Shown here: positions 23,265 through 40,032 of the stretch, piece by piece
How positions within the stretch are numbered: the stretch's first letter is position 1
Layout: every line of letters begins with the position of its first letter
DNA from: Candidatus Bathyarchaeum sp.
Lineage (GTDB): Archaea; Thermoproteota; Bathyarchaeia; Bathyarchaeales; Bathyarchaeaceae
Direction: 5' to 3'
DNA length: 40,032 nucleotides
Assembly (NCBI GenBank): GCA_026014495.1
Contig: JAOZIF010000067.1
Coordinates: forward strand, 1 to 40,032
Translations under genes and position numbers: made by a program
Notes under the pieces: model-generated
What the model was told of the DNA's origin: nothing
What the model saw: only the letters and a program-made list of their open reading frames with translations
The model's database searches: none

Positions 23265-23275
23265 GCTCGATTTAA

Positions 23276-24142: not shown

Positions 24143-25641
24143 AAGACGAGGAACAAAAAATTCTTAGGGAAACTTTCAGCGTTTGCCCAGTGTGCCTAAA
24201 AAAGATAAAAGCACAAGTTGTGGAAAAAGACGGAAAAGTTTTGATTATAAAAGAGTGCAAAGAACACGGAAAGGTTAACGATACTTACTGGGCTAGAGCA
24301 GACATTTACCACAGGGCAGAAGAATACAAAAAGCCCTCACCTACTCCATTTCAAGACAACTGTCCCATGGGATGTGGAGTAACAGAGTGCAAAAACCACG
24401 TGTCTACGACAGTCATGGCGGTTATCGATGTAACCAACGAGTGTGACCTAAGGTGTCCAATATGTTTTGCAAACGCATCAAAGCCACCTGACCTGTATAG
24501 ACCAAGTCTAGAAACAATTCATAACATGCTAAAGTTCTTGAAGAATCAGGACCTGCCTCCGCTAGCAGTGATGTTTGCGGGTGGAGAACCCACAGTCCGT
24601 GACGACATAGTTGAAATCGTCAAGATGGCCCATGACATGAAATTCATGATTCTTCTTGCAACAAACGGCATCAGAATGTCCAACGACCCAGAACTGGTCA
24701 GGAAACTAAAGAAAGCAGGACTAAACATAGTATACCTGCAGTTTGATGGACTCACAGATGAACCCTACGAGAAACTAAGAAATGCAAAACTGCTCCCAAA
24801 TAAACTGCGGCTTGTTGAGCTTTGCCGAAAACATGACATTGAAATAATTTTGGTTCCAACAGTGCAGGGTGGCATAAACGACAACGAAATAGGAGACATC
24901 ATCAGGTTTGCCTCAAAAAATGTGGACATAATAAGAGGAATAGTTTTCCAGCCAATGTCATTTACAGGAAGAACATCGGAGTATGCGTCTAGAAAAAACA
25001 GAATCGACAACTCGCTTCTTGCCCAACTAATCGAGGAACAAACAAGAGGCATGATCACAGAAGAGGACATGTTTCCTGTTTCAGTTATGGTTCCACCGCT
25101 TAAAGTTATGAACAGCTTCTTAGCAAAAACATGGCCCCCATTTACGCCTACACCATACTGTGGACTTTGGAACTGGATTTTAGTTTCCAAAAGAGGAAAA
25201 CACATGTTTACACCAATCAACCGTTTCTTAAAGTTTGACAAGTTCATGTCAGACCTGAAAGTCTTAAATGGGCTGATTAAAAAGAAAAAAATTAGCAAAC
25301 TCGGGATTTACTTGAGGCTGTTTCTTGCTTCGGTTGGTTCTTTAGATTGGAAGAAAGTGCAAAGAGAAGCAGGTCTTTTGAATGCAATAAAAACACTGAT
25401 TCAAATACACACAGACCCGTCATACGATTCGTTAGGGTACATCAGACGAAGAATGCTACTGATAGGAGGCATGGCATTCATGGACCCATACACGTTCGAT
25501 GTTGAACGGGCACATCATTGCGTTATTCACTACGCAACTCCAGATAACCGAATTATACCTTTCTGCGTATACAACATGTTCTACCGAAAACAAACAGAGA
25601 AAAAATTCAGCATACCACAAATTAAAGTCAAGAACAAATAG
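24139..25641 (+). CDS. tes: Tetraether synthase (Tes/GDGT-MAS, MJ0619 family) radical SAM enzyme
   Basis: N-terminal SVCPVC...ECKEHG; CPxxCG...CxxH; rSAM motif CDLRCPICF; GGEPT, TNG, YLQFDG, LVPTV..GIND, FQP.SFTGR; C-terminal MAFMDPYTFDVER..CVIHYATPD.RIIPFC. GTGA overlap with the prenyltransferase. Confidence 0.85.
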   Translation: MKDEEQKILRETFSVCPVCLKKIKAQVVEKDGKVLIIKECKEHGKVNDTYWARADIYHRAEEYKKPSPTPFQDNCPMGCGVTECKNHVSTTVMAVIDVTNECDLRCPICFANASKPPDLYRPSLETIHNMLKFLKNQDLPPLAVMFAGGEPTVRDDIVEIVKMAHDMKFMILLATNGIRMSNDPELVRKLKKAGLNIVYLQFDGLTDEPYEKLRNAKLLPNKLRLVELCRKHDIEIILVPTVQGGINDNEIGDIIRFASKNVDIIRGIVFQPMSFTGRTSEYASRKNRIDNSLLAQLIEEQTRGMITEEDMFPVSVMVPPLKVMNSFLAKTWPPFTPTPYCGLWNWILVSKRGKHMFTPINRFLKFDKFMSDLKVLNGLIKKKKISKLGIYLRLFLASVGSLDWKKVQREAGLLNAIKTLIQIHTDPSYDSLGYIRRRMLLIGGMAFMDPYTFDVERAHHCVIHYATPDNRIIPFCVYNMFYRKQTEKKFSIPQIKVKNK

Positions 25642-25662
25642 TCAGGTATATTTTGTGTAGTT

Positions 25663-25698
25663 CAGTTCTTAGTTGTTTAGGATAACAACTAGGAGCTG
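25663..25698. terminator. Long hairpin between convergent tes and oxidoreductase genes
   Basis: cagttcttagttgtt-taggat-aacaactaggagctg; about 15-bp stem with G-U pairs. Confidence 0.55.
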
Positions 25699-25734
25699 TT
25701 CTATTGTGGGTCAGGTCGTTCATTAAACATTTGG

Positions 25735-27162
25735 TTAAAGTTTGTAGTAGTGCTCAAGTAGATGATGGTAATGTTCCGGAGGCATAAGGGAACGAAAGGC
25801 GCGTTCAACAACTTCGCTTAGAGCAGGGTGAATGTGCATGCTATCAAGTAGAGGTTTGGCGGTCTGTTCGTGCGTGTACATTAAGGGTATTATTTCGTGT
25901 ATGAGAACAGATGCATATGGTCCTATGATGTGGGCTCCAAGAATTTTCGTGCTGCCATTTTCCACGATAACTTTGACAAAATAGTCTTTTGCATCCATTG
26001 CTTCTCCTTTTCCGGTATCTTCGTATCTGTAAAAACCAATCAGCACCTTGTCTGCGCCATACTTTTCTATAGCAGCTTTTTCGCCCAAACCAACTGACGC
26101 AATCTCGGGATACGTAAAAACAGCGTGGGGCACTGCATGATAATCAGCCTTCACTTTTTGTTTCAGCACAGCATTATAGTAAACAACAGCCGCTTCGTGA
26201 TTGGCTACATGCTTGAATGGATGTTTGCCATTGGCGTCTCCAAGAGCCCAAACATTAGGCTGCGAAGTCTCCAAATACTCGTTAACAACAATCCAGCCAT
26301 GACGGTCAGTTTTTATTCCAGCTTTTTCGGGATGAAGCACATCAGAAAAGGAGCTTCTTCCAGTGGCTAGCAGTATCTCGTCTGCAGTTATTTCCAGTTT
26401 TTCGTTGGTTTGTAGATTAGTGGCAACAACACTTTTCTTGCTCTGAGAAGTCAATTTTGTCTCCTGAACTTCATAGTTGGTATAGATTTTCACATACTTT
26501 CCAAGTTCGCGTTTAGCAAGAGCCGACACTTCTGGTTCTTCAGCGTCGATAAAATCGGGAAGCCTACCAACAATTGTGACCTTTGCGCCCATGGAAGAAA
26601 AAAAGTGACCATATTCTGCGGCTACGTAACCGCCACCCACAATCACAAGGCTATCCGGCAGTTCAGTCATCTTAAGAACAGAATCGCTTGTAAGGTAACC
26701 AGTTTTGTCTATACCTTTTATTGGCGGGATAAGGGGTTTTGATCCTGTACCCAGAATAATCATTTTTGCAGTGATTGTTTCTTTGCCAACCTTGAGTGTG
26801 TATGGAGCAATAAATTCTGCAGCTTCAGGGTAATAATCCAAATGTTTTGATTGAGAAAGCCCTTGGCGAATATTGTTTATGTCCTCGTAGATTTTGTGTC
26901 TCATTCTTTCCATGACTTTGATAAAATCTACCTTTTTTAGTTCATAGTCGATTCCAAACGTTTTTGCCTTGTCAATTGTTTTCACTAACTCTGCAGGATA
27001 CAAAAGAAGCTTAGAGGGAATACAGCCCCTTGTTAAACAGATGCCTCCAGGCTCATCTTTGTCGATGACTGCGACCTTCGCTTTAGGGTTCTCTTGAATC
27101 ATAGCCTCAACAATAGCAATCGCAGAACCAGAGCCTATACAAATTAAATCGTACTGCTTCAT
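25735..27162 (-). CDS. Class I pyridine nucleotide-disulfide oxidoreductase (mycothione-reductase-like branch of the dihydrolipoamide dehydrogenase family)
   Basis: IGSGS FAD loop, GGICLTRGCIPSK redox CxxxxC, GGGYVAAEYGH, ALGD, HIHPALSE. Start refined to MKQYD at 27162. Confidence 0.88.
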   Translation of the reverse strand: MKQYDLICIGSGSAIAIVEAMIQENPKAKVAVIDKDEPGGICLTRGCIPSKLLLYPAELVKTIDKAKTFGIDYELKKVDFIKVMERMRHKIYEDINNIRQGLSQSKHLDYYPEAAEFIAPYTLKVGKETITAKMIILGTGSKPLIPPIKGIDKTGYLTSDSVLKMTELPDSLVIVGGGYVAAEYGHFFSSMGAKVTIVGRLPDFIDAEEPEVSALAKRELGKYVKIYTNYEVQETKLTSQSKKSVVATNLQTNEKLEITADEILLATGRSSFSDVLHPEKAGIKTDRHGWIVVNEYLETSQPNVWALGDANGKHPFKHVANHEAAVVYYNAVLKQKVKADYHAVPHAVFTYPEIASVGLGEKAAIEKYGADKVLIGFYRYEDTGKGEAMDAKDYFVKVIVENGSTKILGAHIIGPYASVLIHEIIPLMYTHEQTAKPLLDSMHIHPALSEVVERAFRSLMPPEHYHHLLEHYYKL

Positions 27163-27254
27163 AACAAAACCTCCAGAACACAATCTAACGTAACACAGAA
27201 TCTGCTTAAATCAATTCCTTAAAGGGCACAAAAGATGCCCTTTGAAGATTCAAC

Positions 27255-27527
27255 CTAGTGTCCGTGTCCTTCGTTCTCTTCTTTTATGTGATGTGCCACG
27301 TGGATGCCTAACACAGTTGCAGAGCCTGCGGCGACGCCAAGCAATAACTCAGTAAGTAGTTCACTTTGGTAAAACAGAGCAAAAATTGCAAGCGCATCAA
27401 AGACTAGCGCTACAACCAGATACTGGTAACACCAGCCTTTCATACTTGTTCCTCCAGTAGGGTCATTGATGCCAACAAGCAGCATTAAAACAAAGAGCAC
27501 AACAAAACCAATTGCAAAGTAAATCAA
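27255..27527 (-). CDS. Small 3-TM membrane protein with a His-rich C-terminus
   Basis: GGTGA RBS before the TTG; three hydrophobic segments; tail HVAHHIKEENEGHGH. Confidence 0.75.
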   Translation of the reverse strand: MIYFAIGFVVLFVLMLLVGINDPTGGTSMKGWCYQYLVVALVFDALAIFALFYQSELLTELLLGVAAGSATVLGIHVAHHIKEENEGHGH

Positions 27528-27590
27528 ATTATTTCACCACAAGTACTCATCGTGTATAACTGTTAGAGAAACGGGTTTGACACAAAATTC

Positions 27591-27605
27591 TATATAAAGT
27601 TTCTG
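27591..27605 (-). promoter_or_regulatory. Archaeal BRE-TATA promoter for the small membrane protein and oxidoreductase
   Basis: Minus strand reads cagaaac-tttatata, about 65 nt upstream of the start codon. Confidence 0.6.
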
Positions 27606-27830
27606 TCCAAGCGCAGGTGTTACAACCGTCAACTAAAAAGAACAGATTCTGTTTTGGTACCAAGACGATTAGCAGAAGATTTTAAATGTTGCAAAACATT
27701 AAAACAGGAAAACACTCCAAGAGACATCAACTAGGATTCCCATACGGAGTATAATTAGTCTACAAAATTTGTGGGCAATAAAACTAGGATTATTGGTTAA
27801 AAAGGAAAAGGACGGAGAAATCGCAAAAGA

Positions 27831-29117
27831 ATGACAACTAAATACGCTGAAACTTCGGTTGTTTACGAAAAAGCAATGCACTGGCCACCTTACACGTACC
27901 GAGATTATCCCAAAGCGTCGCCAGAATCGCTCCAAGAATTCATGGATATGCTAGCGACAGAGAACACCAGCAACGACAGAAAGGAACTACAACCATGGAT
28001 ACCTTTCTGCACGCTAAAGTGCAACTTTTGTTATTTTCCCACAGAACTGATTTCTAAAAACAAAATGGGAAACTACCTTGAGGCTCTAAAAAAATCGTTA
28101 AGTAGGTATGCAAAAACAAAATACATTAAGACAAGCGAGTTTTCCGAGGTATACTTGGCAGGTGGAACCCCAAGCATAATGTCCACCGATCAGACAATTG
28201 GTCTGTTATCGTTTTGTGAAAAAAACTTTGACATAAGTAAGGACCGAGAAATCAAAGTGACAGGATGCACTCACGATTTTGACTACAACAAACTCAAGGC
28301 ACTTTCAGAATATGGTGTTGACCAGCTGGATTTAGGTGTGCAAACCTTTGATGATAACATACGAAGATTAGTCAATCTGCGAGATAAAGCAAGAAATGCA
28401 GAAGAAATGATTAAAACAGCACATAAGCTGGGACTTCGCGTAAGCATCGATTTGATGTATAATCTTCCTGGACAGAGCCTAAAAGTCTGGGGCAGCGACA
28501 TACAAAGAGCCCTAGAATTGGATGTTGAAAGCGCGGATTGTTATGCGTTAGAAGTTTATCCTGGAACTAAGTTGGCTCAACAGCTGCAGTCTGGTGATTT
28601 ACCGCCTAGAGCTGACCAAGGAGCTGAAACACAGATGTACCTTGAAGCAAATAGTGTTTTCAAGGCGGCAGGATATGAAAAGACATGTCACAACCGGTTT
28701 TCGAGGATACCAGAAGACTTCCAAGAACCATGCATGGAGGTTCTGGGCACAGGTGCAGGCTTTTTTATGGGAAACTTGGGAAAATTCTCGTATGTAGACA
28801 TCGCGCCTTCCGAAGCATATATTGAAAAGATTAACAACGGAGAGTTTCCGATATCAAAACTTTCAGTGATGTCCACGGATGATGAGATGGGAAAGATGAT
28901 GATGCGTCTGTATATCCGTTTGCCCGTCAATAAGCAAGAGTTCAAGGTGCGTTTTGGAAAACTTCCAGAAGAAGCTTTTGAAGCAACAATCAACAAACTG
29001 GAAAAGAAGGGGCTAATTGAGATTGATGAACAGGAAATAAGGTTAACAAAGTTGGGCGACATATGGAGATATAATGTCTGCTGGGAGTTCTCTAGACCAC
29101 AAGAAAACAGTTCGTGA
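27831..29117 (+). CDS. HemN-like (class C-type) radical SAM enzyme
   Basis: IPFCTLKCNFCYF, VYLAGGTPS, LGVQTFDD, DLMYNLPGQ, LGTGAG, HemN-type C-terminal domain (IRLTKLG). Confidence 0.88.
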   Translation: MTTKYAETSVVYEKAMHWPPYTYRDYPKASPESLQEFMDMLATENTSNDRKELQPWIPFCTLKCNFCYFPTELISKNKMGNYLEALKKSLSRYAKTKYIKTSEFSEVYLAGGTPSIMSTDQTIGLLSFCEKNFDISKDREIKVTGCTHDFDYNKLKALSEYGVDQLDLGVQTFDDNIRRLVNLRDKARNAEEMIKTAHKLGLRVSIDLMYNLPGQSLKVWGSDIQRALELDVESADCYALEVYPGTKLAQQLQSGDLPPRADQGAETQMYLEANSVFKAAGYEKTCHNRFSRIPEDFQEPCMEVLGTGAGFFMGNLGKFSYVDIAPSEAYIEKINNGEFPISKLSVMSTDDEMGKMMMRLYIRLPVNKQEFKVRFGKLPEEAFEATINKLEKKGLIEIDEQEIRLTKLGDIWRYNVCWEFSRPQENSS

Positions 29118-29132
29118 TGTTATTAGCGGGGG

Positions 29133-29972
29133 TTGATGTTGAACGCGCTAAAAGTCTTTAGGGGCTTGATGGCTTTTCTTACAGCCATCCCTGTGAAGAT
29201 GGATGAAAGTTTTTTGGATATTTCTGCCAAGTTCATGTTCCTGTTTCCAGTGATAGGTATTATTATAGGAGTCCTTGTCGGAGCATATGCCCGATTCGCA
29301 AACACTGTTTTGTTCTCTCTTTTTGGCGCCATAAACAACATTGTTTTTTCAGGTTCTTACGAAGCTTTTTTCCAGTTTGCAGCCAAGGGGCTTGCAAGCG
29401 CCATGATTATCGCGTTCATACTTGTGATTATAGGGCTTCAGCACACAGACGGCTTAGTTGATGTTGGTAACGCTTTAGGCATGAGAAAAGCGTCCCTTGA
29501 AGATAAAGTGGACATTGCTCACGTATGGACGGTTACACGAACAGGAGCCTTTCTTGCTCTGGCTGTTTCGTTCTTCACGTTTTTACTTATCTTCCTGACA
29601 AAAACGGATGTAATAATCCAAGCGCTCATAGTTGCAGAGGTTTCAGCTAAATTAGCAATGGTTACTACTGGGTGGCAAGGCACGTCCCCACCGCCCAAGT
29701 TCTATGAAAACAGGTGGGAAAAAGGAAGAAGCTTCATTGATTCAATTAGGAAAAAACATGGGCTATACGCTATTTCGTTAGGTATTTCACTTGTCGTTAG
29801 CGTTGCATTATTTGGTTTAACGGGTGTTTTTGCCGTAGTTGCTGGAATGCTGGTAGGTAGCGTCATGATAGTTGTGGGCAAGCAGGTTTTTGGAGGAGTA
29901 AATGGAGATATTTTTGGCGCCACTAATGAGATTGCCCGAATGGTTGCATTGTTTGTGTTGGTGATTTTGTGA
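29133..29972 (+). CDS. cobS: Adenosylcobinamide-GDP ribazoletransferase (cobalamin synthase) CobS
   Basis: FLTAIPV, FPVIG, GLQHTDGLVD, GGVNGDIFGATNEIAR; multi-TM; adjacent to cobY. Confidence 0.88.
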   Translation: MMLNALKVFRGLMAFLTAIPVKMDESFLDISAKFMFLFPVIGIIIGVLVGAYARFANTVLFSLFGAINNIVFSGSYEAFFQFAAKGLASAMIIAFILVIIGLQHTDGLVDVGNALGMRKASLEDKVDIAHVWTVTRTGAFLALAVSFFTFLLIFLTKTDVIIQALIVAEVSAKLAMVTTGWQGTSPPPKFYENRWEKGRSFIDSIRKKHGLYAISLGISLVVSVALFGLTGVFAVVAGMLVGSVMIVVGKQVFGGVNGDIFGATNEIARMVALFVLVIL

Positions 29973-30583
29973 TGCAAGTGGTAGCGTTGATTATGGCGGG
30001 AGGAAAAGGAACCCGTTTTAGTGGAGACACTGAAAAACCTATGGCACAATTCGATGGCAAACCGCTCATAAGAAGAGTTATTGACGCCGTCAAGGAGTCC
30101 AAAAGAATTGCAGATATTTACGTAGCGGTAACCGCTTACAGTCCAAATACGGCTCAAGAGGCAAAGAAAGCAGCAGTAAAGGTTATCGAGACCGACGGAA
30201 AAGGATACCATGTTGACGTGCAACAAGCAGTAAAGAAAGCGAACATATCGTGTCCTGTTTTTATTATCTCAGCTGACCTTCCTTTGATTAATGGAAAGTT
30301 TCTTGATGAAGTAATCGGCAAATACGAAAAGTCAGGCAAACCCGCTTTAACTGTGCTGATTCCTGAAGAAGCTTTTCGCGAGTATGGCTTGTCAGCTGTT
30401 TCGCTTTATGAGCAAGAGGGAAAAATGTATGCAGTTTCAGGCATCAACATAATTGATGGTCAAAGAATCTTAGAGGAACAAGAACAAGAAGTTGTTGTCA
30501 GCAGCAAACCCGAAGCTGTCTTCACAGTTAACTCACGTAAAGATTTGATTGCAGCACAGGAGTATCTATCGCGTACCAAGTAG
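29969..30583 (+). CDS. cobY: Adenosylcobinamide-phosphate guanylyltransferase CobY
   Basis: LIMAGGKGTRF...EKPM...GKPLI, GKGYHVD, ISADLPLI, SGINII, FTVNS; overlaps the cobS stop codon. Confidence 0.88.
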   Translation: MMQVVALIMAGGKGTRFSGDTEKPMAQFDGKPLIRRVIDAVKESKRIADIYVAVTAYSPNTAQEAKKAAVKVIETDGKGYHVDVQQAVKKANISCPVFIISADLPLINGKFLDEVIGKYEKSGKPALTVLIPEEAFREYGLSAVSLYEQEGKMYAVSGINIIDGQRILEEQEQEVVVSSKPEAVFTVNSRKDLIAAQEYLSRTK

Positions 30584-30611
30584 ATTCGACAAGGCAATCA
30601 AGAAGAAAGAG

Positions 30612-31751
30612 CTATTTTTGTTTGTTTAAAGATTTGATTGCGTCTATCAGTTTTTTGTTTTCTTCTGGTCGCCTAACTGTTACTCTGAAGAATCTGTTGT
30701 TTAATCCGTCGAAGTCTTTACAGTCTCTTATTAGCAGACCCTTTTTGGCAAGTCCCTCTTTGATGTGTGTTGAAGTTAACTTTCCTTGGGTTACTTCAAT
30801 TAGTAAAAAGTTGGTTTCAGAATGATGTACCTTCAACCAAGCAATAGACTTGAACAGCTTAATCATTTCTTTTCTGCTCTTTGAAACAAGAAGACGACTG
30901 TTTTTGATGAAGTCGACGTCATTAACTGCCGCTGCAGTCGCAAACATGGCTAAACTGTTTACGCTCCAAGGCATTTTTACATTATTTAGGACATTAATAA
31001 GGTCAGGTGAGGCTATGCCAAAACCTATTCTGACGCCTGCTAAACCAAAGAATTTTGTTAATGACCTGAGAACAAACAGGTTGTTGTACTCGTTAACGTA
31101 CTCAGCCATTGAGTATCTTTTGGCATCGTCAACAAAGTCAATGTAATCCTCGTCAAGAAACACAAGAACATTGCGTTTTGCAGCAAACCTAATGATGTGC
31201 AGGAGGTCTTCTTTTTCATAAAGCACTCCAGTTGGACTATTTGGATTACAAAGAAATATAATTCTAGTTTTTTTTGAAATTGACTGCTCCAGTTCTTTGA
31301 CGTTTAGCTCAAAATTCTTTGCTGAATCACATTTTAGAAAGGTCATGTTTCCGCCGAATCGTTCTATTGCTGCTTTGTATTCACTAAATGATGGGACAGG
31401 AATAACAGCCTCGTATCCATCCTCAAGAAAGACTTCATTGAACAAGTAGATTAACTCAGTGGAGCCGTTGCCCAATATCACATTGTTAGGATTTACGCCA
31501 TTAGACTTTGCAAGAATTTTAAGAAGCCATTCAGGATTGGGGTCAGGATAATGTTTTATCAAGTTGAGGTGTTCGCTGATAGTTTTTAGTGCAGTTTCGG
31601 GTGCACCTAGGGGGTTGGTGGAGATGCTAAAGTCAATAAGTTGGTCTACAGGAATGTCATATTTTTCTGAAATTTCCCAAACGTTTCCGCCGTGAAAGTA
31701 GGGAGTTAAGTCTCTAAGAGATTTCTTAGCCAGCTTGGAAACATCTACCAT
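30612..31751 (-). CDS. cobD: L-threonine-O-3-phosphate decarboxylase CobD (PLP, HisC-like)
   Basis: HGGNV, DFSISTNPLG, YPDP, GNGSTELI, CNPNSPTG, DEDYIDF, RSLTKFFGLAGVRIG. The cob context favours CobD over HisC. Confidence 0.82.
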   Translation of the reverse strand: MVDVSKLAKKSLRDLTPYFHGGNVWEISEKYDIPVDQLIDFSISTNPLGAPETALKTISEHLNLIKHYPDPNPEWLLKILAKSNGVNPNNVILGNGSTELIYLFNEVFLEDGYEAVIPVPSFSEYKAAIERFGGNMTFLKCDSAKNFELNVKELEQSISKKTRIIFLCNPNSPTGVLYEKEDLLHIIRFAAKRNVLVFLDEDYIDFVDDAKRYSMAEYVNEYNNLFVLRSLTKFFGLAGVRIGFGIASPDLINVLNNVKMPWSVNSLAMFATAAAVNDVDFIKNSRLLVSKSRKEMIKLFKSIAWLKVHHSETNFLLIEVTQGKLTSTHIKEGLAKKGLLIRDCKDFDGLNNRFFRVTVRRPEENKKLIDAIKSLNKQK

Positions 31752-31796
31752 AATGTGCCTTCCTGTTTAGGTTTTCAGACTTTATTGTTCAGACAG

Positions 31797-31806
31797 ATAT
31801 AAAAAT
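31797..31806 (-). promoter_or_regulatory. TATA box of cobD
   Basis: Minus strand atttttatat about 50 nt upstream of the ATG; GGAAGG RBS at 31758-31763. Confidence 0.5.
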
Positions 31807-31826
31807 TAACAGCCAAAACAAGAGCG

Positions 31827-32444
31827 TTAACTGGATTTTTGATCAAGCTCCTTTAGGAAACGCAGCAACTCATCCTCGATTATCCACTGCATCTTGAAGT
31901 GATTATTGTAGTCGTTAAAGATTCTATAGAGCCAATACGCAGCTGCTAAACCAAAGGTTGCAACACTAAGAAAAACATACTTACCTATCGCAAATTTGGG
32001 TGTAGTCGCGTAACTTTGGATGTTCAAAGGCACTCCAGAATCTTTTGCCAATGCAAGTATTTCATGCAAAAAATCGTGTTCGTGCTCTTCGTGTTTTTGA
32101 AGGTCAGTCTTTAAAGAGTAAAAAAGGTAAAAGGCTGGAACAATTAGAAGCGTTGAAAGAGTCAAGGCTTTCTCATTTCTGGAGGACAGTTTAACTGTTT
32201 TTGGAGATTCGGGTGCACTCTGTGGATTTCGAGTTTTTCTAAGCTTGCTCAGGATTAGTGTTTCCAGTTTTTCTTGTCTAGCGAAGTGGTCGTTTCTTCT
32301 TTTGATTGTGTAGTATATCATTGGAAACCAAGCTATTCCAAAACTTGCTACCGATAGAACAGCCCACATAGAGAACCACATGATGCGGTCTGTTTCTTTT
32401 CTTGTTGCGATGTTTTTTTCGATTTCCAGCAGAGTTTGCTTCAC
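31827..32444 (-). CDS. DUF4234-like membrane protein with an internal duplication (ORF open from 32531)
   Basis: Two similar halves (LSVASFGIAWFPMIYYTIKRRNDHF and LSVATFGLAAAYWLYRIFNDYNNHF); GGAG RBS upstream of the GTG at 32444. Confidence 0.65.
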   Translation of the reverse strand: MKQTLLEIEKNIATRKETDRIMWFSMWAVLSVASFGIAWFPMIYYTIKRRNDHFARQEKLETLILSKLRKTRNPQSAPESPKTVKLSSRNEKALTLSTLLIVPAFYLFYSLKTDLQKHEEHEHDFLHEILALAKDSGVPLNIQSYATTPKFAIGKYVFLSVATFGLAAAYWLYRIFNDYNNHFKMQWIIEDELLRFLKELDQKSS

Positions 32445-32567
32445 TTTGGTTAAGTCTCTCCATGAGTGTTCATGCTGTGAACAACAATGCAGAACTACAA
32501 CCTGATTTAATATAAAAAGTGAACCATTCATTCACTTGTATGAAAGTGTTGGCAAACTATTTAATTC

Positions 32568-33311
32568 ATGAAAGGGGACATCTCTGAGACAATGGCAAAA
32601 GGTAACAAAGACATGGAGCGAGAAAATTTTTTCGTTTCTGTTATTATTCCAGTGTTCAATGAGGAAGTAACGGTAGGAGGCATAGTTACTCGAACAAAGG
32701 ATACTTTGGAAAAGATGGGAGTGTTATACGAAGTTTTGGTTGTTGATGATGGGTCAGATGACAGGTCAGCAGAGGTAGCAAATGAACGAAAAGCCACTGT
32801 GATAAGTGCTGCCCATCAGGGGAAAGGTTTTGCGCTCCGTTCTGGTTTTAGACAAGCTAAAGGCGAATTTGTAGTTACATTGGATGGGGATGGTTCTCAC
32901 AAGCCAGAAGAGATTCCGTTGGTTCTACGGGGCATAATGGAGGACAGGGCTGATTTTGTGGTTGGTTCAAGATTCGCTAATTCTGAAGACAACAAGACTA
33001 AGATTCCGAAAATAAACAGGATGGGAAACAGGTTGTTTAACAACATGACTGGATATCTTACTGGCGTAAATATTTCGGATTCTCAATCTGGTTTTAGAGC
33101 AATTCGAGCATCATTAATCAAAAAGATGAAGTTAACTTCTCACGGCTATGAAGTTGAGTCTGAAATGCTTGTTAAAGCATTGCGGATGGGCGCAAGAGTT
33201 GCGGAAACGCCCATAAGTTTTGACCAAAGGACGGTAGGAAATTCTAAGCTTGACCCCATAAGAGATGGCGCAAGAATACTTTATGCCATAATAGCATCTT
33301 ATTTATCATAA
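32568..33311 (+). CDS. GT2 DPM1-like lipid-phosphate glycosyltransferase
   Basis: SVIIPVFNEE, VVDDGSDD, HQGKG.ALRSG, TLDGDGSHKPEEI, VVGSRF, DSQSGFRA, YEVESEM. Confidence 0.92.
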   Translation: MKGDISETMAKGNKDMERENFFVSVIIPVFNEEVTVGGIVTRTKDTLEKMGVLYEVLVVDDGSDDRSAEVANERKATVISAAHQGKGFALRSGFRQAKGEFVVTLDGDGSHKPEEIPLVLRGIMEDRADFVVGSRFANSEDNKTKIPKINRMGNRLFNNMTGYLTGVNISDSQSGFRAIRASLIKKMKLTSHGYEVESEMLVKALRMGARVAETPISFDQRTVGNSKLDPIRDGARILYAIIASYLS

Positions 33312-33363
33312 AATAGGTTAGTATCATTAGTGGGTTACAAAACAATACCAAAGGGGCAACCAG

Positions 33364-34389
33364 TTGAAAAACAAAGAGCCTAAACAAGAAAAGGAGCCGC
33401 TTTTAGGAGTTAGCATAATAGTAACCACATTTAACAGCGCACCGACAATAGATGAGTGCCTTCGCTCGATTCTGGAACTGGATTACCCCAAAGAGTTACT
33501 TGAAGTAATAGTGGTTGATGGGGGTTCAACAGACGCAACAATGGAAATCGCAAAAACACATCCAGTTAAACTGGTTTATAGTCAACTTAACCCTGCTGCT
33601 GCTTACAACCTTGTTTTGAAAAATGTAGAAAACGAGGTAATAGGCTTAATTGATTCTGACGCCAAAGTGGAAAAAAGTTGGCTTAGAAAGCTTGTTAGGC
33701 ACTTAGATGACCCAGAGGTTGCTGGAGCAAGCGGAACCGTGGAAACATGGAACAGTGATAGTTTGGTTCCAAGAGTTATAGGTTATGAACTGAATTACAG
33801 GTATCAAAGGCTTCCCAAAACGGTTGAAAGAGTAGCAACCATGAACCTGTTACTGAAAACGAAGGTAACCATGGAAATTGGAGGCTTTGATGAGGCTCTT
33901 CCAACACAGTATGATACAGACATAGGAGCAAGATTAGCCAAGAAGGGCTACAAGATAGCGTTTGACATTGAAGCAAAATGTTACCATTTTCATCGTCCAA
34001 CACTGAGAACGTTCTTCAAGCAGCAGTACAAGTATGGTCAGAACACGTGGAAGCTGTATTTCAAACATCCAAAGTTGGCTAGTGGTGACAAAATAACGGA
34101 CAGGTGGATGAATGTTCAGCCAATACTGTGTGGGGTTGCAGGCATATTGCTTCTAGTTAGTGTAGTTACAGGCTTTCATTGGATTCCATCATTGATGTTT
34201 CTAGCTATTGTTCTTGCAACAACACTGCATTACGTGTTGTCTGCTGTAAAAATTTCATACATTTTTCATGACCCAACAGCCATGTATCTTGTTGTAATTT
34301 ATTTCACCAGAGCCTTAGGGTGGACACTAGGAGGAACAACCTCTTTAATCCAAACAGCGTTAACACGAGGAGAGGACAGAAAAAATTGA
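33364..34389 (+). CDS. GT2 glycosyltransferase with C-terminal TM helices
   Basis: SIIVTTFNS, VVDGGSTD, IDSD, IGGFDE, QQYKYG (QxxRW-like), C-terminal hydrophobic segments. Confidence 0.9.
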   Translation: MKNKEPKQEKEPLLGVSIIVTTFNSAPTIDECLRSILELDYPKELLEVIVVDGGSTDATMEIAKTHPVKLVYSQLNPAAAYNLVLKNVENEVIGLIDSDAKVEKSWLRKLVRHLDDPEVAGASGTVETWNSDSLVPRVIGYELNYRYQRLPKTVERVATMNLLLKTKVTMEIGGFDEALPTQYDTDIGARLAKKGYKIAFDIEAKCYHFHRPTLRTFFKQQYKYGQNTWKLYFKHPKLASGDKITDRWMNVQPILCGVAGILLLVSVVTGFHWIPSLMFLAIVLATTLHYVLSAVKISYIFHDPTAMYLVVIYFTRALGWTLGGTTSLIQTALTRGEDRKN

Positions 34390-35576
34390 ACGTGTGCTTT
34401 GTAACTCCAGAGTACTTCCCAATTTCAGGCGGAACAGGAGCTTATGTGTATTATCTTTCACATAGTCTCCAAAAAATGGGACATAACGTTCACGTGGTAG
34501 CCAGAGACAAGCAAGACTCTGAGCGAACAATTAACGGAATCCAAGTCCATTACATAAAAGGCGTAGGAAACGCCCTAACCAGATACTGGCGATTCGCCCG
34601 CTCAGCCTCCAAAAAAATAAAAGAACTGAACAAACAAAGTGGCTTGGACATAATACACGCTAACCTTCCTTTGGTTCCAAGTTTTGCCATACCAAACGTT
34701 TCATCCAAGGTTGTTTGTGCAGTTCACTCAACATGGAAAGGAGAAGCCATAGTAACAAAACAAGACAACCCCAAAGAGCTAAATCCCAACGAAAAGTCGA
34801 TGCTTCGCTTCAATTTTGTGCTCAGAAAATACGAAAAAAGTTTGATGAAGCGTTCAGATGCCCTGATTGCAGTGAGCAAATACACTGTTAATGAGCTAAC
34901 AGACCTTTATGGCATCAACAAAAATAAGATTCATGTAATCTACAACGGTGTTGACACACAAAAATTCAAGCCACGACAAAACAGGGCTGAGCTACGAAAA
35001 GAATTTGGCTTAGAAGAAGACAAGAAAATAGTTCTCTTTGTTGGGCGCCTCTATCATCGAAAGGGGCTGGAAACCTTATTGCAGTCAATTCCGTCAGTCC
35101 TTAAAGAAGAAAGTAACGTAAAGTTTGTCATATCAGGAAAAGGCTTCAAGCAAAAAGAAGAAAACCTGAAAAATCTAGCAAAAGAGTTGAATATAGAAGA
35201 TTACGTGACGTTTCTGGGTTATGTTCCAGATGAAAAACTGCCTAACTTATACTCTGCATCTGACATATTTGTGCTACCAGCAATTTACGAAAACTTTCCA
35301 TTCGCCATACTTGAAGCCCAATCTAGTGCGCTTCCAGTTATTTCTACTAAAGTTGGAGGAATACCAGAGTTTTTAGTAGATAACGAAAACGGGTTTTTGA
35401 TAGACCACGGAGACCCAAAACAGATAACACAAAAAGTGTTAGCTTTGCTGCAGAATCCCAAACGTGCACAAGAAATGGGTGAATATGGAAGAAAGTTAAT
35501 AGAAGAAAAGTTTGATTGGAACCTGATTACCAAGCAAGTAATTGACTTGTATCACAAGCTTTTAGAGGAAACTTAA
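34386..35576 (+). CDS. GT4-family glycosyltransferase
   Basis: TTG start overlapping the upstream TGA; YFPISGGTG, IHAN, IYNGVD, FVGRL..RKG, FVLPAIYENFPFAILEAQSSALPVISTKVGGIPE. Confidence 0.93.
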   Translation: MNVCFVTPEYFPISGGTGAYVYYLSHSLQKMGHNVHVVARDKQDSERTINGIQVHYIKGVGNALTRYWRFARSASKKIKELNKQSGLDIIHANLPLVPSFAIPNVSSKVVCAVHSTWKGEAIVTKQDNPKELNPNEKSMLRFNFVLRKYEKSLMKRSDALIAVSKYTVNELTDLYGINKNKIHVIYNGVDTQKFKPRQNRAELRKEFGLEEDKKIVLFVGRLYHRKGLETLLQSIPSVLKEESNVKFVISGKGFKQKEENLKNLAKELNIEDYVTFLGYVPDEKLPNLYSASDIFVLPAIYENFPFAILEAQSSALPVISTKVGGIPEFLVDNENGFLIDHGDPKQITQKVLALLQNPKRAQEMGEYGRKLIEEKFDWNLITKQVIDLYHKLLEET

Positions 35577-36577
35577 CGGGGCAAAGAGTTGTCCCAGTGT
35601 TTATCTATCCACTCTTTTCCTTTGATTTCTGTATCGACTTTCCTGTAGACATTCAGGCAGCCCTGTAGCATATTCAAAAAGGGTGTGCCAAAACAAAGGC
35701 GTGTAAGAAAATAGTTTTTGTAAACCCATCGCTGAGTACGAACCGCCAAATCAGCATATGGAAGAAGAAAAGGGCGTTTCACATTTTCGATGTTTTCGCC
35801 TATAATTTGGGTCCGGCTTTGTTCGCGTTGCAAATGTTTGTCAATAAACTTTAGGTAACTGATGTCAGCCCAGTCAATGCCCATTATTTCACAGCACAGC
35901 TTGTCCATGGCAAGAAGATCACTACTTGCTAGGATAAGATTCATGGGTATGACAATTCCTCTGTTGGGTCCGTTTCCTTCCATGGCAAACGTAGCGTCCA
36001 TAACAACAAGCTTGGGTTTTAACAAAACTAGCAAATCATGCATAACCATGTCAAATTTAGGATGCAGAAAAATGCGTCTATCGTTTGGTATGCAGCCAAA
36101 CAGGTTCTTCATGGCGCCACTGTAGGTTGTGAACTCGTGAGTCTTCATAACTGGAACGTCAATAACACAGTCCGCGGCTACAATAGTTTTAGGCAATGGA
36201 AAAATGTTCAAACAAAAGGTTTTGTCACTTTGAACGTTTACGGTTTCGTCGTTAGACAAGTTGATTGCAGTTCCGCCAGCTTTTTCAACAACCTTCTTTA
36301 CGCCAGTCATTGCCAGAGCATCGTCGCAACAGTAATTGTAGCCGTTAGATTCGCCGACAATAACTTCTTCAGCTCTGTCCCGAAGAAGACACACCAAATG
36401 AAACAGTAAAACAGGGTTTGTGACAGCCCCCTGAATGTAATATTTAGAGCACAAATTTGGTTTTATGAAAACCTTACCGCGAACATGCCTATCCCAGTCA
36501 GCAGCTTTTAGTGCCTCTTTTAGGGCTGACTCTAAACTGTCATCGGTTTTAAAAACACCAATATTTACCGTTTTCAT
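35573..36577 (-). CDS. DUF362-domain protein
   Basis: VFIKPNL, VTNP, VIVGES, VPVMKTH...GAMKNLFG, DATFAMEGNGP, ASSDLLAMD; 3 bp downstream of the rSAM/SPASM gene. Confidence 0.85.
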   Translation of the reverse strand: MKTVNIGVFKTDDSLESALKEALKAADWDRHVRGKVFIKPNLCSKYYIQGAVTNPVLLFHLVCLLRDRAEEVIVGESNGYNYCCDDALAMTGVKKVVEKAGGTAINLSNDETVNVQSDKTFCLNIFPLPKTIVAADCVIDVPVMKTHEFTTYSGAMKNLFGCIPNDRRIFLHPKFDMVMHDLLVLLKPKLVVMDATFAMEGNGPNRGIVIPMNLILASSDLLAMDKLCCEIMGIDWADISYLKFIDKHLQREQSRTQIIGENIENVKRPFLLPYADLAVRTQRWVYKNYFLTRLCFGTPFLNMLQGCLNVYRKVDTEIKGKEWIDKHWDNSLPR

Positions 36578-36580
36578 TTG

Positions 36581-37993
36581 TCAGTCGCCCTCCGATAATT
36601 TTCTGATGCAGCCGGGGTCAGACATAAGATAGTCGTCATGATACGCATAGGCTCTTGCTCTGCATCCGCCACAAACAAACTTGTAATCACATTTGCTGCA
36701 GCGCCCCTTTAGCTTTGCTCTGTCTCGCAGGTCATTTAAAACTGGAGAGTTAAACCAAATGTCTTCTATGCGTTCAGTCTTTAGATTTCCGACTACCAGT
36801 GGCATGAAAACACAAGGTTGAACGTCACCTTCTGGAGAGATTGCGCAATAGAATCGTCCAGCGCCACATCCGCCAATAAAGTCGGCTAGAGCTTTTGCTC
36901 TTTTGCTTACCTTAGCGGCTTCCATGTGTGCAAGAGGCAACACAATGTCCTCTTGGGTTGGAGAATGACACTGCAAAGCAACTCGAGCAAGTTGAGGCGT
37001 GGTGCTCAGTATCGCTATTTTATGGTCCTCAGACAATTGTTTATTGAAGTAGCGTAAAAGTTCCTCTCGCTCTTTTGGAGACGGATCAGCAGCAACTATC
37101 TCTTTGCCTCTACCTGTGGGAACAAAATTGAATAACGTAAACCTGTCAATTCCCATATTCTCAGCCATTTCAAGAACTGCAGGAATTTCTGTCAGATTAT
37201 TTTTAGTTCCAGTTATTGCGATGCATGTGCAGATTCCTTTGTTCATGCAGTTTTTTAATCCCTGTAAAGTCTGCTCAAAAGCCCCAGTTTTTCCCCTGAA
37301 GAAATCGTGCGTTTTAGCGTTAGCTCCATCAAGGCTAACTTCCACGTAATGGAGCCCAATTTCTTTGAGTTTTCTAACGTTTTCCTCGTTAAGCAAGGTT
37401 CCATTTGTAGCTAAAGAGACATACAGTCCCGCATCAACTGCGTGACGTGCAACTTCAAAGAAATCTTTTCTCATCAAGGGTTCACCCCCTGAAAAGGCTA
37501 AAGATGTTACACCAAAATCTGCTAATTGGTCCACAACTTTCATGGCTTCCTCGGTGGAGAGTTCCATCTTTGAGCTGCTGCCCGAGTCTGAGTAGCAGTG
37601 TTTGCATTTGAGGTTGCATTTGTATGTGAAATTCCATACAACAAGAAAGGGGGCATGAACTTGTATTGGACGGTTGAAACCAAACTCGGCAAATCCATAC
37701 ACTATGCTGTTTATGGCTCGTCTAACATAAGAGTCCGAGAAAAGTTTAGAAACACGGCTCTTTTCAACAGCTAACGATTTTTGTATAAATTTTATCCAGA
37801 ATTCTATGACTCTAACGTAAATGCTGCACGATGAGCAGTTTGAATGATTCTTGCCAGAATAATTGTCTAACGCAGTTTCAAGTGGGGTGTGATTACATTT
37901 TGAACAAGTTTTCAGAGCGGTGTTCAGCATCCATTTTACGGGAGGCAGCTTTAGGATTGCATTCCAGAGTTTTTCGTTTGTTAGCACATTCAT
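36581..37993 (-). CDS. Radical SAM/SPASM enzyme with an N-terminal CxxC...CxxC site, candidate GMGT synthase (Gms)-like
   Basis: CSKC-x19-CSSC; APFLVVWNFTYKCNLKCKHCY; SGGEP; FNFVPTGRG; SPASM motifs GGCGAGR...QPC...CSKC...CGGCRARAY...DPGC. The rSAM/SPASM call is firm; the Gms assignment is inference. Confidence 0.85.
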   Translation of the reverse strand: MNVLTNEKLWNAILKLPPVKWMLNTALKTCSKCNHTPLETALDNYSGKNHSNCSSCSIYVRVIEFWIKFIQKSLAVEKSRVSKLFSDSYVRRAINSIVYGFAEFGFNRPIQVHAPFLVVWNFTYKCNLKCKHCYSDSGSSSKMELSTEEAMKVVDQLADFGVTSLAFSGGEPLMRKDFFEVARHAVDAGLYVSLATNGTLLNEENVRKLKEIGLHYVEVSLDGANAKTHDFFRGKTGAFEQTLQGLKNCMNKGICTCIAITGTKNNLTEIPAVLEMAENMGIDRFTLFNFVPTGRGKEIVAADPSPKEREELLRYFNKQLSEDHKIAILSTTPQLARVALQCHSPTQEDIVLPLAHMEAAKVSKRAKALADFIGGCGAGRFYCAISPEGDVQPCVFMPLVVGNLKTERIEDIWFNSPVLNDLRDRAKLKGRCSKCDYKFVCGGCRARAYAYHDDYLMSDPGCIRKLSEGD

Positions 37994-38196
37994 TGAAATC
38001 GGTCCAAACTGATGGTTGGAGATACCGTATTAGGTTAGTAGTGGAAACGGAAAAAATAAACTTACCGAGAAAAAAGAGGCGTAAAACTCTAACAAAAAGC
38101 CACGTCAAATAACTTAACAGATTTTTGTAAAGCAACAATTTAAAAGCAATTCTCTAATTGTTTAGTCTAATGGTTAGCTCCAATAGGGTATGAAAA

Positions 38197-39597
38197 ATGA
38201 CGAACAAATCAGTCAAAATAGCGCTGGTAAATCCACCTACATTAAAAGGCGTCTATAGACACCAGCTTTATCTACCCATTGGATTAGCATACCTAGCCGC
38301 TGTTCTTGAAGAGAATGGACACGAAGTAACAGTGATGGATTGCCCAGCATTACACATGGATAACGAAGATTTAAGAAAAAAATTATCCAGCTTTGAACCA
38401 CAGATTGTTGGAATCACATCTATGACACCAACAATACAGTCTGCTCTTCTAGCTGCACAGGTTGCGAAAGAAGCCTGCCCTGAAGCAACAGTTGTTCTAG
38501 GAGGAGCCCACGCCACATTCATGGATGAACAACTAATCACAGAGCAAGCAATTGACATAGTAGTAAGGGGCGAGGGCGAAAAAACCATACTAGAACTAGC
38601 ACAAAATGTGTCCAACCCAAAAGCGCTCAATAGCATTGAAGGAATAACATTTAGAAACAACGGACAAACCGTTCGTACACCTAACAGAGACCTCATACAA
38701 AACCTTGACGAATTGCCACTTCCAGCATACAAACACTTCTCGTTAGAAAAATATCGGCTTTTTGGACGAAAAATACTTCCAATAATAAGCAGTCGAGGAT
38801 GCCCGTTCCAATGCTCGTTTTGTGTAACAAGTCGGATGTTTGGAAAAGCATTCCGTGCAAGAAGTCCCAAGAGTGTAGTGGATGAACTGGAATGGCTAAA
38901 AGATGTGCATGGAGCAGATGCATTCACGTTTTACGATGACACATTTACATTTGACAAAAAAAGAGCACTTGATATTTGTCAAGAAATGAAGAACCGAAAG
39001 ATTAAGATTCCATGGGATTGCCAAACAAGAGTTGACCAAGTGTCTAAAGACATGTTACAGACAATGAAAGAAGCTAACTGCCAACAGGTTTTCTTTGGAA
39101 TTGAATCAGGCTGCCAACAAATGCTCAACACCATGAAAAAAAGAACATCAATTGAGCAAAACGAGCAGGCAATCAAATGGGCAAAAGAAACAGGACTATT
39201 TGTCGCTGTACCCTTGATTATTGGGTATCCAGGAGAAACAAAAGACACATTCAAGCAAACACTTGAGTTCATCCGAAAAGTACAACCCGACGACGCGTAC
39301 ATATGCGTAGCAACACCTTACCCAGGCACTGAACTTCGCAAAACCGTTGAAAACAACGGATGGAAAATGTCTTCCAACTGGAGCCAATACGATACAATAA
39401 CACCAGTTTTCGAAAATCCTCTACTATCATCTGAAGACATCACAAAAATAAGAAGCAAATTCTACAACAGCTTTTACTCACCAACATACGTTATCAGACA
39501 ATCAATAAAAGGACTAAAAGGCAACTTTTATAGCAAAATTATGGCGCGAACCGCGATTAACCACATGATTTGGCGAGCAAAGTCAATATTTATGTGA
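38197..39597 (+). CDS. Cobalamin-binding (class B) radical SAM enzyme, probable methyltransferase
   Basis: B12 domain LPIGLAYLAA, VGITSMTP, GGAHAT, VRGEGE; rSAM motif SRGCPFQCSFC; YDDTFT, GIESG, IIGYPGET, TPYPGTEL. Confidence 0.92.
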   Translation: MTNKSVKIALVNPPTLKGVYRHQLYLPIGLAYLAAVLEENGHEVTVMDCPALHMDNEDLRKKLSSFEPQIVGITSMTPTIQSALLAAQVAKEACPEATVVLGGAHATFMDEQLITEQAIDIVVRGEGEKTILELAQNVSNPKALNSIEGITFRNNGQTVRTPNRDLIQNLDELPLPAYKHFSLEKYRLFGRKILPIISSRGCPFQCSFCVTSRMFGKAFRARSPKSVVDELEWLKDVHGADAFTFYDDTFTFDKKRALDICQEMKNRKIKIPWDCQTRVDQVSKDMLQTMKEANCQQVFFGIESGCQQMLNTMKKRTSIEQNEQAIKWAKETGLFVAVPLIIGYPGETKDTFKQTLEFIRKVQPDDAYICVATPYPGTELRKTVENNGWKMSSNWSQYDTITPVFENPLLSSEDITKIRSKFYNSFYSPTYVIRQSIKGLKGNFYSKIMARTAINHMIWRAKSIFM

Positions 39598-39786: not shown

Positions 39787-39790
39787 TTAC

Positions 39791-40032
39791 TTATTTTCGC
39801 TTTCTAAGCACGTAGAAGCTAACTACGCCGATACAAACAGCGACAACAACTGCTGCTATTATTGCTACTTCTGTGGTTATGAGTGATTCACTTGCAGTTT
39901 CTTCTGGCTCGGTCACAGGCTCTTCAGTTACAGGCTCTTCTGTTACGGGTTCTTCAGTGTCAGGTTCTTCTGGAGTTATTGGTGTTGAAGCAGAGACAGC
40001 AGGATCTACGCCTATCGCTGTTTCTGCGTATG
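39791..40032 (-). CDS. C-terminus of a membrane-anchored surface protein (partial, continues beyond the window)
   Basis: Manual translation: ...YAETAIGVDPAVSASTPITPEEPD(TEEPV)x3TEPEETASESLITTEVAIIAAVVVAVCIGVVSFYVLRKRK*; Pro/Glu linker, TM helix, basic tail. Confidence 0.85.
   Translation of the reverse strand, partial: YAETAIGVDPAVSASTPITPEEPDTEEPVTEEPVTEEPVTEPEETASESLITTEVAIIAAVVVAVCIGVVSFYVLRKRK
39914..39958 (-). repeat. Three 15-bp coding tandem repeats (TEEPV)
   Basis: act gaa gaa ccc gta / aca gaa gag cct gta / act gaa gag cct gtg on the minus strand. Confidence 0.85.

Follow-up and report, generated by a model that had tools for sequence, protein, structure and literature searches.

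A GMGT synthase orthologue and a non-canonical Gmm-family radical SAM paralogue at a conserved tetraether-lipid gene island of a Candidatus Bathyarchaeum genome

On a stretch of 40,032 nucleotides from Candidatus Bathyarchaeum sp. (contig JAOZIF010000067.1 of assembly GCA_026014495.1, positions 1 to 40,032, analysed at its full length and called the window below), two genes for radical S-adenosylmethionine (SAM) enzymes stand head to head. The explanation that we favour as a whole, with a probability of roughly 0.7, is that the first, open reading frame (ORF) A, encodes an orthologue of Gms, the synthase of glycerol monoalkyl glycerol tetraethers (GMGTs), and that the second, ORF B, encodes a tetraether-tailoring paralogue of the Gmm family of B12-dependent radical SAM enzymes. 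ORF A (36581-37993, minus strand, 470 amino acids (aa)) was assigned by Pfam, tree, reciprocal best hits and an AlphaFold2 model, and ORF B (38197-39597, plus strand, 466 aa) by Pfam and trees as a non-canonical, ‘Gmm2-like’ member of its family. The start codons of both are backed by homologues, since relatives of ORF A are nearly all 470 aa long and those of ORF B 462-468 aa. The names of the close homologues point to Bathyarchaeia, at or close to Ca. Bathyarchaeum. The head-to-head arrangement and the 203 bp between the genes are as the initial annotation had described them. GMGTs, the H-shaped tetraethers, and their methylated forms are sedimentary biomarkers, and which lineages produce them affects how the proxies are read.

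The identity of ORF A is best seen in its phylogenetic placement and its reciprocal best hits. In a tree of 111 proteins, composed of the named loci listed from a genome scan (a sample of the scan matches, without type strains), Thermococcaceae genomes and the paralogues of this genome, 70 extension-bearing proteins including ORF A were split from 41 AhbD, AhbC, NirJ-like and fused proteins with Shimodaira–Hasegawa-like (SH-like) support of 0.999, and the same value was obtained from the full alignment and from the core alone (residues 117-465). The extension-bearing clade includes the Thermococcaceae gms genes that adjoin gmm, together with sequences of Archaeoglobi, Methanococci and Methanobacteriaceae. 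Gms proteins of Thermococcaceae, Archaeoglobi and Methanococci found ORF A with 361-432 bits and the next protein of the genome with at most 265 bits, so that ORF A is their unique reciprocal best hit. Four proteins 77-86% identical to ORF A (PVX24752.1, UCC58939.1, PVX24567.1 and TRO51186.1) are entered as Gms homologues in the table ‘Archaeal domain-Gms-homologs’ of Li 2024 (Source Data; PMC11186832), with 44.6-49.3% identity (E 1e-105 to 1e-113) to the M. okinawensis Gms assayed in vitro in that study; against the same query, the assayed T. guaymasensis Gms shows 47.9% identity (4e-105) (PMC11186832). In Garcia 2024, Gms is defined as a homologue of AhbD that is extended at its N-terminus by ~100 aa (COG4001), and it is recognised by separation from AhbD, by a clade shared with confirmed GMGT producers and by that extension (PMC11214058). 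We are highly confident that ORF A is an orthologue of Gms, and count it as one more member of a family whose occurrence in this lineage had been reported before; by analogy with the assayed enzymes, it would act as the single GMGT synthase of a Bathyarchaeum-type archaeon. The earlier wording, ‘Gms-like,’ can accordingly be strengthened to orthologue on the tree placement and the reciprocal best hits, and the enzyme classes given there, radical SAM/SPASM for Gms and B12 radical SAM for Gmm, agree with the literature (PMC11214058, PMC11186832).

The protein itself has the parts expected of a Gms. Pfam places a Radical_SAM domain at residues 121-276 (E 2e-31) and a SPASM domain at residues 376-436 (E 1e-11), the radical SAM motif is C126-x3-C130-x2-C133, and the SPASM-region cysteines C376, C394, C432, C435, C441, C444 and C462 are 99-100% conserved in the Gms clade. 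All of the radical SAM and SPASM cysteines conserved across this clade are found in ORF A, in keeping with a radical SAM cluster and two auxiliary clusters. The published architecture of the M. okinawensis enzyme comprises six N-terminal helices, two bridging helices and a beta-hairpin (PMC11186832). The AlphaFold2 model of ORF A (predicted local distance difference test score (pLDDT) 93.9) contains the same elements, with the six helices spanning residues 7-104 (pLDDT of the block 79-94), the two bridging helices, and the hairpin at residues 349-363. BLAST alignments with the Thermococcaceae Gms begin at residue 38, that is, within the extension. Foldseek searches of the PDB with the models of both ORFs returned generic SPASM or class-B radical SAM folds only; to our knowledge, none of Gms, AhbD and Gmm has a solved structure.

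The curated family models would at first suggest a different function for ORF A, namely heme b synthase or another enzyme of alternative heme synthesis (AhbD, AhbC or NirJ-like) unrelated to lipids, because its best NCBIfam model is AhbD (TIGR04545), followed by NirJ2 and others. The AhbD score is, however, 309.7 bits against a cut-off of 500, and the match is limited to residues 117-464, which leaves over the 116-aa N-terminal extension. ORF A is also set apart, even when only the core is aligned, from the clades formed by AhbD and AhbC of methanogens and Firmicutes that make heme, and the trees place it outside the Ahb and the peptide-maturase clades, the two groups in which the initial annotation had considered that it might fall. 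Other Ahb/NirJ-like proteins are encoded elsewhere in the genome (one on contig C151 with 368 bits to the AhbD model, three on C193 and one on C129). The neighbours of ORF A are Tes and glycosyltransferase genes, not heme genes, and Pfam annotation of the neighbourhood found no tetrapyrrole ring-modifying gene. Considering the sub-cut-off score, the extension, the separate clade and the lipid context together, the assignment of ORF A to AhbD is largely refuted, and a role in heme synthesis appears very improbable.

Some relatives of ORF A are worth recording in their own right. The C151 protein (C151:6537-8456 in genome G000; L009:640-2559) is 639 aa long and joins an N-terminus of ~290 aa, which has no Pfam match, to an AhbD-like SPASM core; it has the top score of the genome against the AhbD model, groups in the tree with AhbD and not with Gms, and has homologues of 644-705 aa in five other Bathyarchaeia loci. 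Thermococcaceae also encode another Gms-like type, whose N-terminus is longer and whose ORFs measure 552-622 aa (L104/G150, L105/G184 and similar genomes), with a B12 radical SAM gene usually at a distance of 6-10 kb (~190 kb in G146), and this type clusters with proteins of Methanotrichaceae, Acidilobaceae and Hyperthermus, not with the gms that directly adjoins a gmm-like gene. A bacterial Gms type (P0267) occurs in Aerophobetes, Latescibacteria, Planctomycetes and Clostridia.

The N-terminal extension of ORF A contains a four-cysteine (Cys4) site, C30-x2-C33-x19-C53-x2-C56, preceding the radical SAM motif, which the initial annotation had singled out as an extra feature paralleling the N-terminal metal site of the Tes-like protein in the window. 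The site is indeed there, but it is not special to ORF A, as about half of the Gms family has it: of the 70 proteins of the Gms clade, about a quarter have the four cysteines all in register, and about a quarter more have three, the second cysteine apparently being offset by the alignment. The full set is found in Archaeoglobi and some methanogen Gms, and three of the four cysteines align in many Bathyarchaeia. The site is absent from the Thermococcaceae Gms, so the reaction can do without it in some lineages at least. We regard the Cys4 motif of ORF A as real yet not unusual, a part of the N-terminal domain that marks Gms. As for the parallel with Tes, both proteins do have an N-terminal cysteine site, that of Tes lying in a Zn_ribbon_HMPTM domain (residues 8-51), but homology between the two is not detectable, residues 1-116 of ORF A matching no Pfam family (best match E 0.058).

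ORF B consists of a B12-binding domain (residues 25-134, E 9e-25) and a Radical_SAM domain (residues 196-359, E 6e-24), and no NCBIfam family matched it above cut-off. Its AlphaFold2 model (pLDDT 95.1) has a class-B radical SAM fold, with AprD4, TsrM, MgmA, OxsB, CysS and TokK as best matches; an amphipathic C-terminal membrane helix at residues 444-465 was not supported by a simple hydrophobic-moment test (muH 0.13). Gmm is a B12 radical SAM enzyme often clustered with gms (PMC11214058), and Garcia 2024 searched for its homologues by the presence of B12-binding and radical SAM domains, a minimum length of 400 aa and an E value of ≤ 1e-65 against the T. guaymasensis Gmm (Tg-Gmm; PMC11214058). 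ORF B comes within these limits: against the gms-adjacent B12 enzymes of Thermococcaceae, which from their position we take to be Tg-type, canonical Gmm, it gave E values of 3e-94 and 1e-95 at 35-36% identity. Compared with the Methanobacteriaceae copies, it is 38-42% identical to those not adjacent to gms (~E 1e-105 to 1e-113) and 35-39% identical to the gms-adjacent ones (~E 1e-82 to 1e-91). On sequence grounds, ORF B is a member of the Gmm family and not a canonical Gmm. Many Bathyarchaeota have only multi-copy ‘Gmm2’ homologues (non-canonical, clade D; PMC11214058), and we provisionally place ORF B with this ‘Gmm2’ type, the pattern fitting the description given by Garcia 2024 (PMC11214058).

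Several observations weigh against the combined reading of ORF A as Gms and ORF B as a Gmm-family tailoring enzyme. The connection of ORF A to the assayed enzymes runs through orthologues at the genus and family level and through the table of Li 2024. In two trees, ORF B was found outside the clade of gms-adjacent enzymes (SH-like 0.89 and 0.935; in the second of these trees, the clade has 21 mostly gms-adjacent proteins of Thermococcaceae, Archaeoglobi, Methanobacteriaceae and Bathyarchaeia), and thus outside what we take to be canonical Gmm (Gmm1, clades A-C); it belongs to a Bathyarchaeal expansion (SH-like 0.88) whose junction with the non-adjacent Methanobacteriaceae ‘Gmm2’ copies is weak (0.56). 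The genome holds at least five further paralogues (two on contig C129 and others on C135, C87 and C70), and canonical Gmm proteins match five or six of the paralogues of this genome about equally. A Gmm homologue from Bathyarchaeota, Ted, has been shown to be a desaturase (bioRxiv 10.1101/2025.10.20.683597). The orthologues of ORF B, moreover, are scattered with respect to gms. In the complete chromosome of Ca. Bathyarchaeum bin115, the nearest complete genome, the orthologue (73% identical) is ~200 kb away from gms, and a HemN-like gene holds the divergent position upstream of gms; in G090 it stands ~17 kb from gms, among five B12 paralogues that form an island, in G098 on a separate contig, and in G038 ~12 kb from gms, at that end of the lipid island where cobD lies. 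Expression evidence was sought, and no RNA dataset was listed; a single DNA run, from sediment, contained 24% of the words sampled. The initial suggestion that the B12 enzyme is a GMGT methylase stands at the level of the family, but it does not extend to the canonical enzyme, considering the placement at 0.935 support and the at least six near-equidistant paralogues.

It could be, then, that ORF B is not a methylase of a known kind and instead catalyses Ted-like desaturation, ring formation or methylation at another site (e.g. the glycerol backbone, as in butanetriol-type lipids), in which case the Bathyarchaeal expansion would be a set of functionally diversified lipid-tailoring enzymes. The lineage-specific expansion outside the canonical clade, with at least six copies here and, in relatives, four or five grouped into islands, is consistent with such a scenario, as is the range of functions among Gmm homologues, which besides Ted include Cgm and Pgm, glycerol dialkyl glycerol tetraether (GDGT) methylases that act on other substrates (bioRxiv 10.1101/2025.10.20.683597); the function of Gmm2 was left open by Garcia 2024 (PMC11214058). 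On the other hand, ORF B is closer to canonical Gmm (35-39% identity, ~E 1e-90 to 1e-95) than the published values for Ted (31% at 1e-60) and Cgm (34% at 7e-72) against Gmm (bioRxiv 10.1101/2025.10.20.683597), a rough comparison because the searches differ, and at 466 aa it is shorter than the filters used to search for Ted (≥500 aa) and Cgm (>495 aa) (bioRxiv 10.1101/2025.10.20.683597). A hydratase partner of the AttH/CrtC type (PF07143) was found in none of 121 Bathyarchaeia genomes. We consider this alternative somewhat unlikely but a serious contender, and retain the Gmm-family tailoring enzyme as the preferred reading of ORF B.

Whether the two genes form a functional pair is a separate question. 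The initial annotation had read them as a co-regulated module of cross-linking plus methylation, which goes further than the comparison allows: the head-to-head arrangement is absent in the closest relatives, and adjacent gms and gmm genes elsewhere are in tandem. At seven of the 55 named Gms loci listed, a B12 homologue is encoded no more than 300 bp from gms, each time on the same strand. The AT-rich spacer (37994-38196; 203 bp, 33% GC) has, as read by eye, an A/T-rich TATA-like stretch at each side, and relatives, in which the adjacency is not kept, have nothing that corresponds to it; the segment of the window from 36 to 40 kb contained no Rfam match and no tRNA. The arrangement looks like a recent local rearrangement and not a conserved regulatory unit.

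One may go a step further and regard the juxtaposition of gms and ORF B as an assembly artefact, or as a neutral rearrangement with no functional link. The adjacency was seen in this genome only, among the genomes examined, with the HemN-like gene of bin115 in the place of ORF B; the ORF B gene ends 435 bp from the contig end, and short contigs of one sediment metagenome cover both sides of the junction, none of those listed spanning 37934-38071. Against this, paralogues of the same B12 family lie 7-17 kb from gms in genomes of the same genus and at the cobD end in order-level relatives, and therefore a loose physical association is recurrent; the cobamide genes of the island also suggest that the B12 enzymes serve the same pathway. 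We judge a juxtaposition of this kind, artefactual or neutral and with no functional link, to be unlikely. The B12 family is in loose, recurrent association with the lipid island, and of the genomes examined only this one has the head-to-head pair.

Two further observations concern neighbouring DNA. Directly upstream of gms in G090, a genome of the same genus (C1, ~449-472 kb; L113, L121), the five B12 radical SAM paralogues are accompanied by a NirJ-like SPASM protein, a class I SAM methyltransferase and an 853-aa protein with pyrroloquinoline quinone (PQQ) repeats. Beyond ORF B in the window, a gene on the minus strand (39790-40032) is cut by the contig end and has a very high word depth in a sediment metagenome; at the C-terminus of its product, EEPVT-like repeats precede a hydrophobic tail and basic residues, a layout suggestive of a surface-protein anchor.

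The island to which ORF A belongs (22326-37993 in the window) begins with genes for an epimerase, a UbiA-type prenyltransferase and tetraether synthase, Tes (22326-25641, plus strand; NCBIfam Tes, Pfam). The last of these, described earlier as Tes-like, is a true Tes (24139-25641; 502.9 bits, NCBIfam cut-off 450) and would supply the GDGT substrate. These are followed by a HemN-family radical SAM gene (27831-29117, plus; best model ChuW/HutW at 212 bits, below cut-off), cobS (29133-29972, plus) and a cobY-like gene (29969-30583, plus), the latter two with NCBIfam matches below cut-off (to CobY in the case of the second), cobD (30612-31751, minus; NCBIfam CobD 296.7 bits, cut-off 290.55), and three glycosyltransferase (GT) genes of families GT2, GT2 and GT4 (32568-35576, plus; Pfam and synteny). 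A DUF362 gene (35573-36577, minus; Pfam E 1e-46) starts 3 bp past the gms stop codon. In order-level relatives, the order Tes-UbiA-epimerase, cobS-cobY-gms-DUF362, GT4-GT2-GT2, membrane protein-cobD is nearly unchanged; besides the window, we saw the island in seven loci (L035, L036, L037, L118, L122, L125 and L126), the epimerase, UbiA and Tes genes adjoining cobS-cobY-gms in L035, L037, L125 and L126. The conservation of this island, with its Tes, cobamide and glycosyltransferase genes, supports a lipid role of ORF A.

The DUF362 gene may encode an accessory factor for Gms. Most relatives of this order have retained the pair of gms and DUF362 (L023, L051, L035, L036, L037, L118 and L122-L126), which G090 and G098 lack; a DUF362 gene was found no more than 300 bp from gms at five of the 55 named Gms loci listed, and none was seen to adjoin gms in other phyla. 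The genes for assembly of the cobamide nucleotide loop are syntenic with gms in relatives, a hint that B12 enzymes act in the same pathway. Their presence inside a tetraether cluster was unexpected. The edges of the island are often occupied by B12 radical SAM paralogues or by a HemN/ChuW-like radical SAM gene, and the position of the latter varies, next to cobS here, divergent from gms in bin115 and past cobD in G102.

The data show the domains of the two proteins, the orthology of ORF A, the family of ORF B and the lipid-island setting; the reaction, its substrate and whatever coupling exists between ORF A and ORF B we infer. In the proposed scheme, the 5'-deoxyadenosyl radical of ORF A would, by analogy with the assayed Gms, take a hydrogen off one of the biphytanyl chains of a GDGT supplied by the neighbouring Tes, and a C-C bond to the other chain would then generate the H-shaped GMGT, 2 Da lighter than its substrate. 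The two SPASM auxiliary clusters would transfer electrons, the N-terminal six-helix domain would hold the lipid, and the Cys4 motif would most likely be a structural metal site. ORF B would most likely modify the tetraether core, methylcobalamin-based methylation being the likeliest chemistry. Butanetriol and pentanetriol tetraethers are attributed to the Bathyarchaeia lineage. A bolder extension is that ORF B, together with five or more paralogues, makes up a diversified toolkit of B12-dependent lipid editors in Bathyarchaeia, with ORF B catalysing a reaction other than C-13-type methylation of GMGT (methylation at other positions or of the glycerol backbone, or desaturation) and DUF362 being a dedicated accessory of Gms; taken as a whole, this is a speculation that we find doubtful.

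That Bathyarchaeota encode Gms is not new. Garcia 2024 counted 188 Bathyarchaeota Gms sequences (PMC11214058), two papers of that year described Bathyarchaeota with Gms and many Gmm2-type genes and listed near-identical proteins by accession (PMC11214058, PMC11186832), and most gms reads from peat and marine sediment were assigned to Bathyarchaeota (PMC11214058, PMC11186832). With Bathyarchaeal Gms and Gmm2 reported in 2024, the window therefore adds one genome and no new idea; what is of use here is the conserved tes-cobamide-gms-DUF362-GT island, the large set of B12 radical SAM paralogues and the variable Cys4 site.

Lastly, the two proteins can be compared with the known systems. Ted, Cgm and Pgm belong to the same B12 radical SAM superfamily as ORF B and act on tetraether tails, and Ted comes, like ORF B, from Bathyarchaeota (bioRxiv 10.1101/2025.10.20.683597); the Ted gene overlaps a gene for an AttH-like hydratase, whereas no AttH/CrtC gene accompanies ORF B in the window. 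With Gmm (T. guaymasensis and the Gmm1 and Gmm2 clades), ORF B shares the B12-binding and radical SAM domains, a length of ~460 aa and a genome that also holds gms and tes; unlike canonical Gmm, it is multi-copy, lineage-specific and divergent from gms instead of in tandem with it, and it is nearer to the extra, non-adjacent copies of Methanobacteriaceae than to their gms-adjacent ones. ORF A has in common with AhbD, AhbC and NirJ the fold and sequence of the radical SAM/SPASM core, AhbD being the best curated model, but it differs from them in its extra N-terminal domain, its own clade and a gene context of lipid and not of tetrapyrrole synthesis. The Gms references are those of M. okinawensis (METOK_RS04425/AEH06837.1), T. 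guaymasensis (AJC70771.1), T. celer and P. furiosus (AAL80771.1) (PMC11186832, PMC11214058). Compared with these, ORF A differs in that its gene is followed by a DUF362 gene and surrounded by cobamide and glycosyltransferase genes, and it has a complete N-terminal Cys4 that the Thermococcaceae enzymes do not. It resembles them in length (470 aa against 466-480 aa) and in its host, a Tes-encoding anaerobe, and its 42-45% identity to the Thermococcaceae, Archaeoglobi and Methanococci orthologues is at the same level as that between the assayed Gms of T. guaymasensis and of M. okinawensis.

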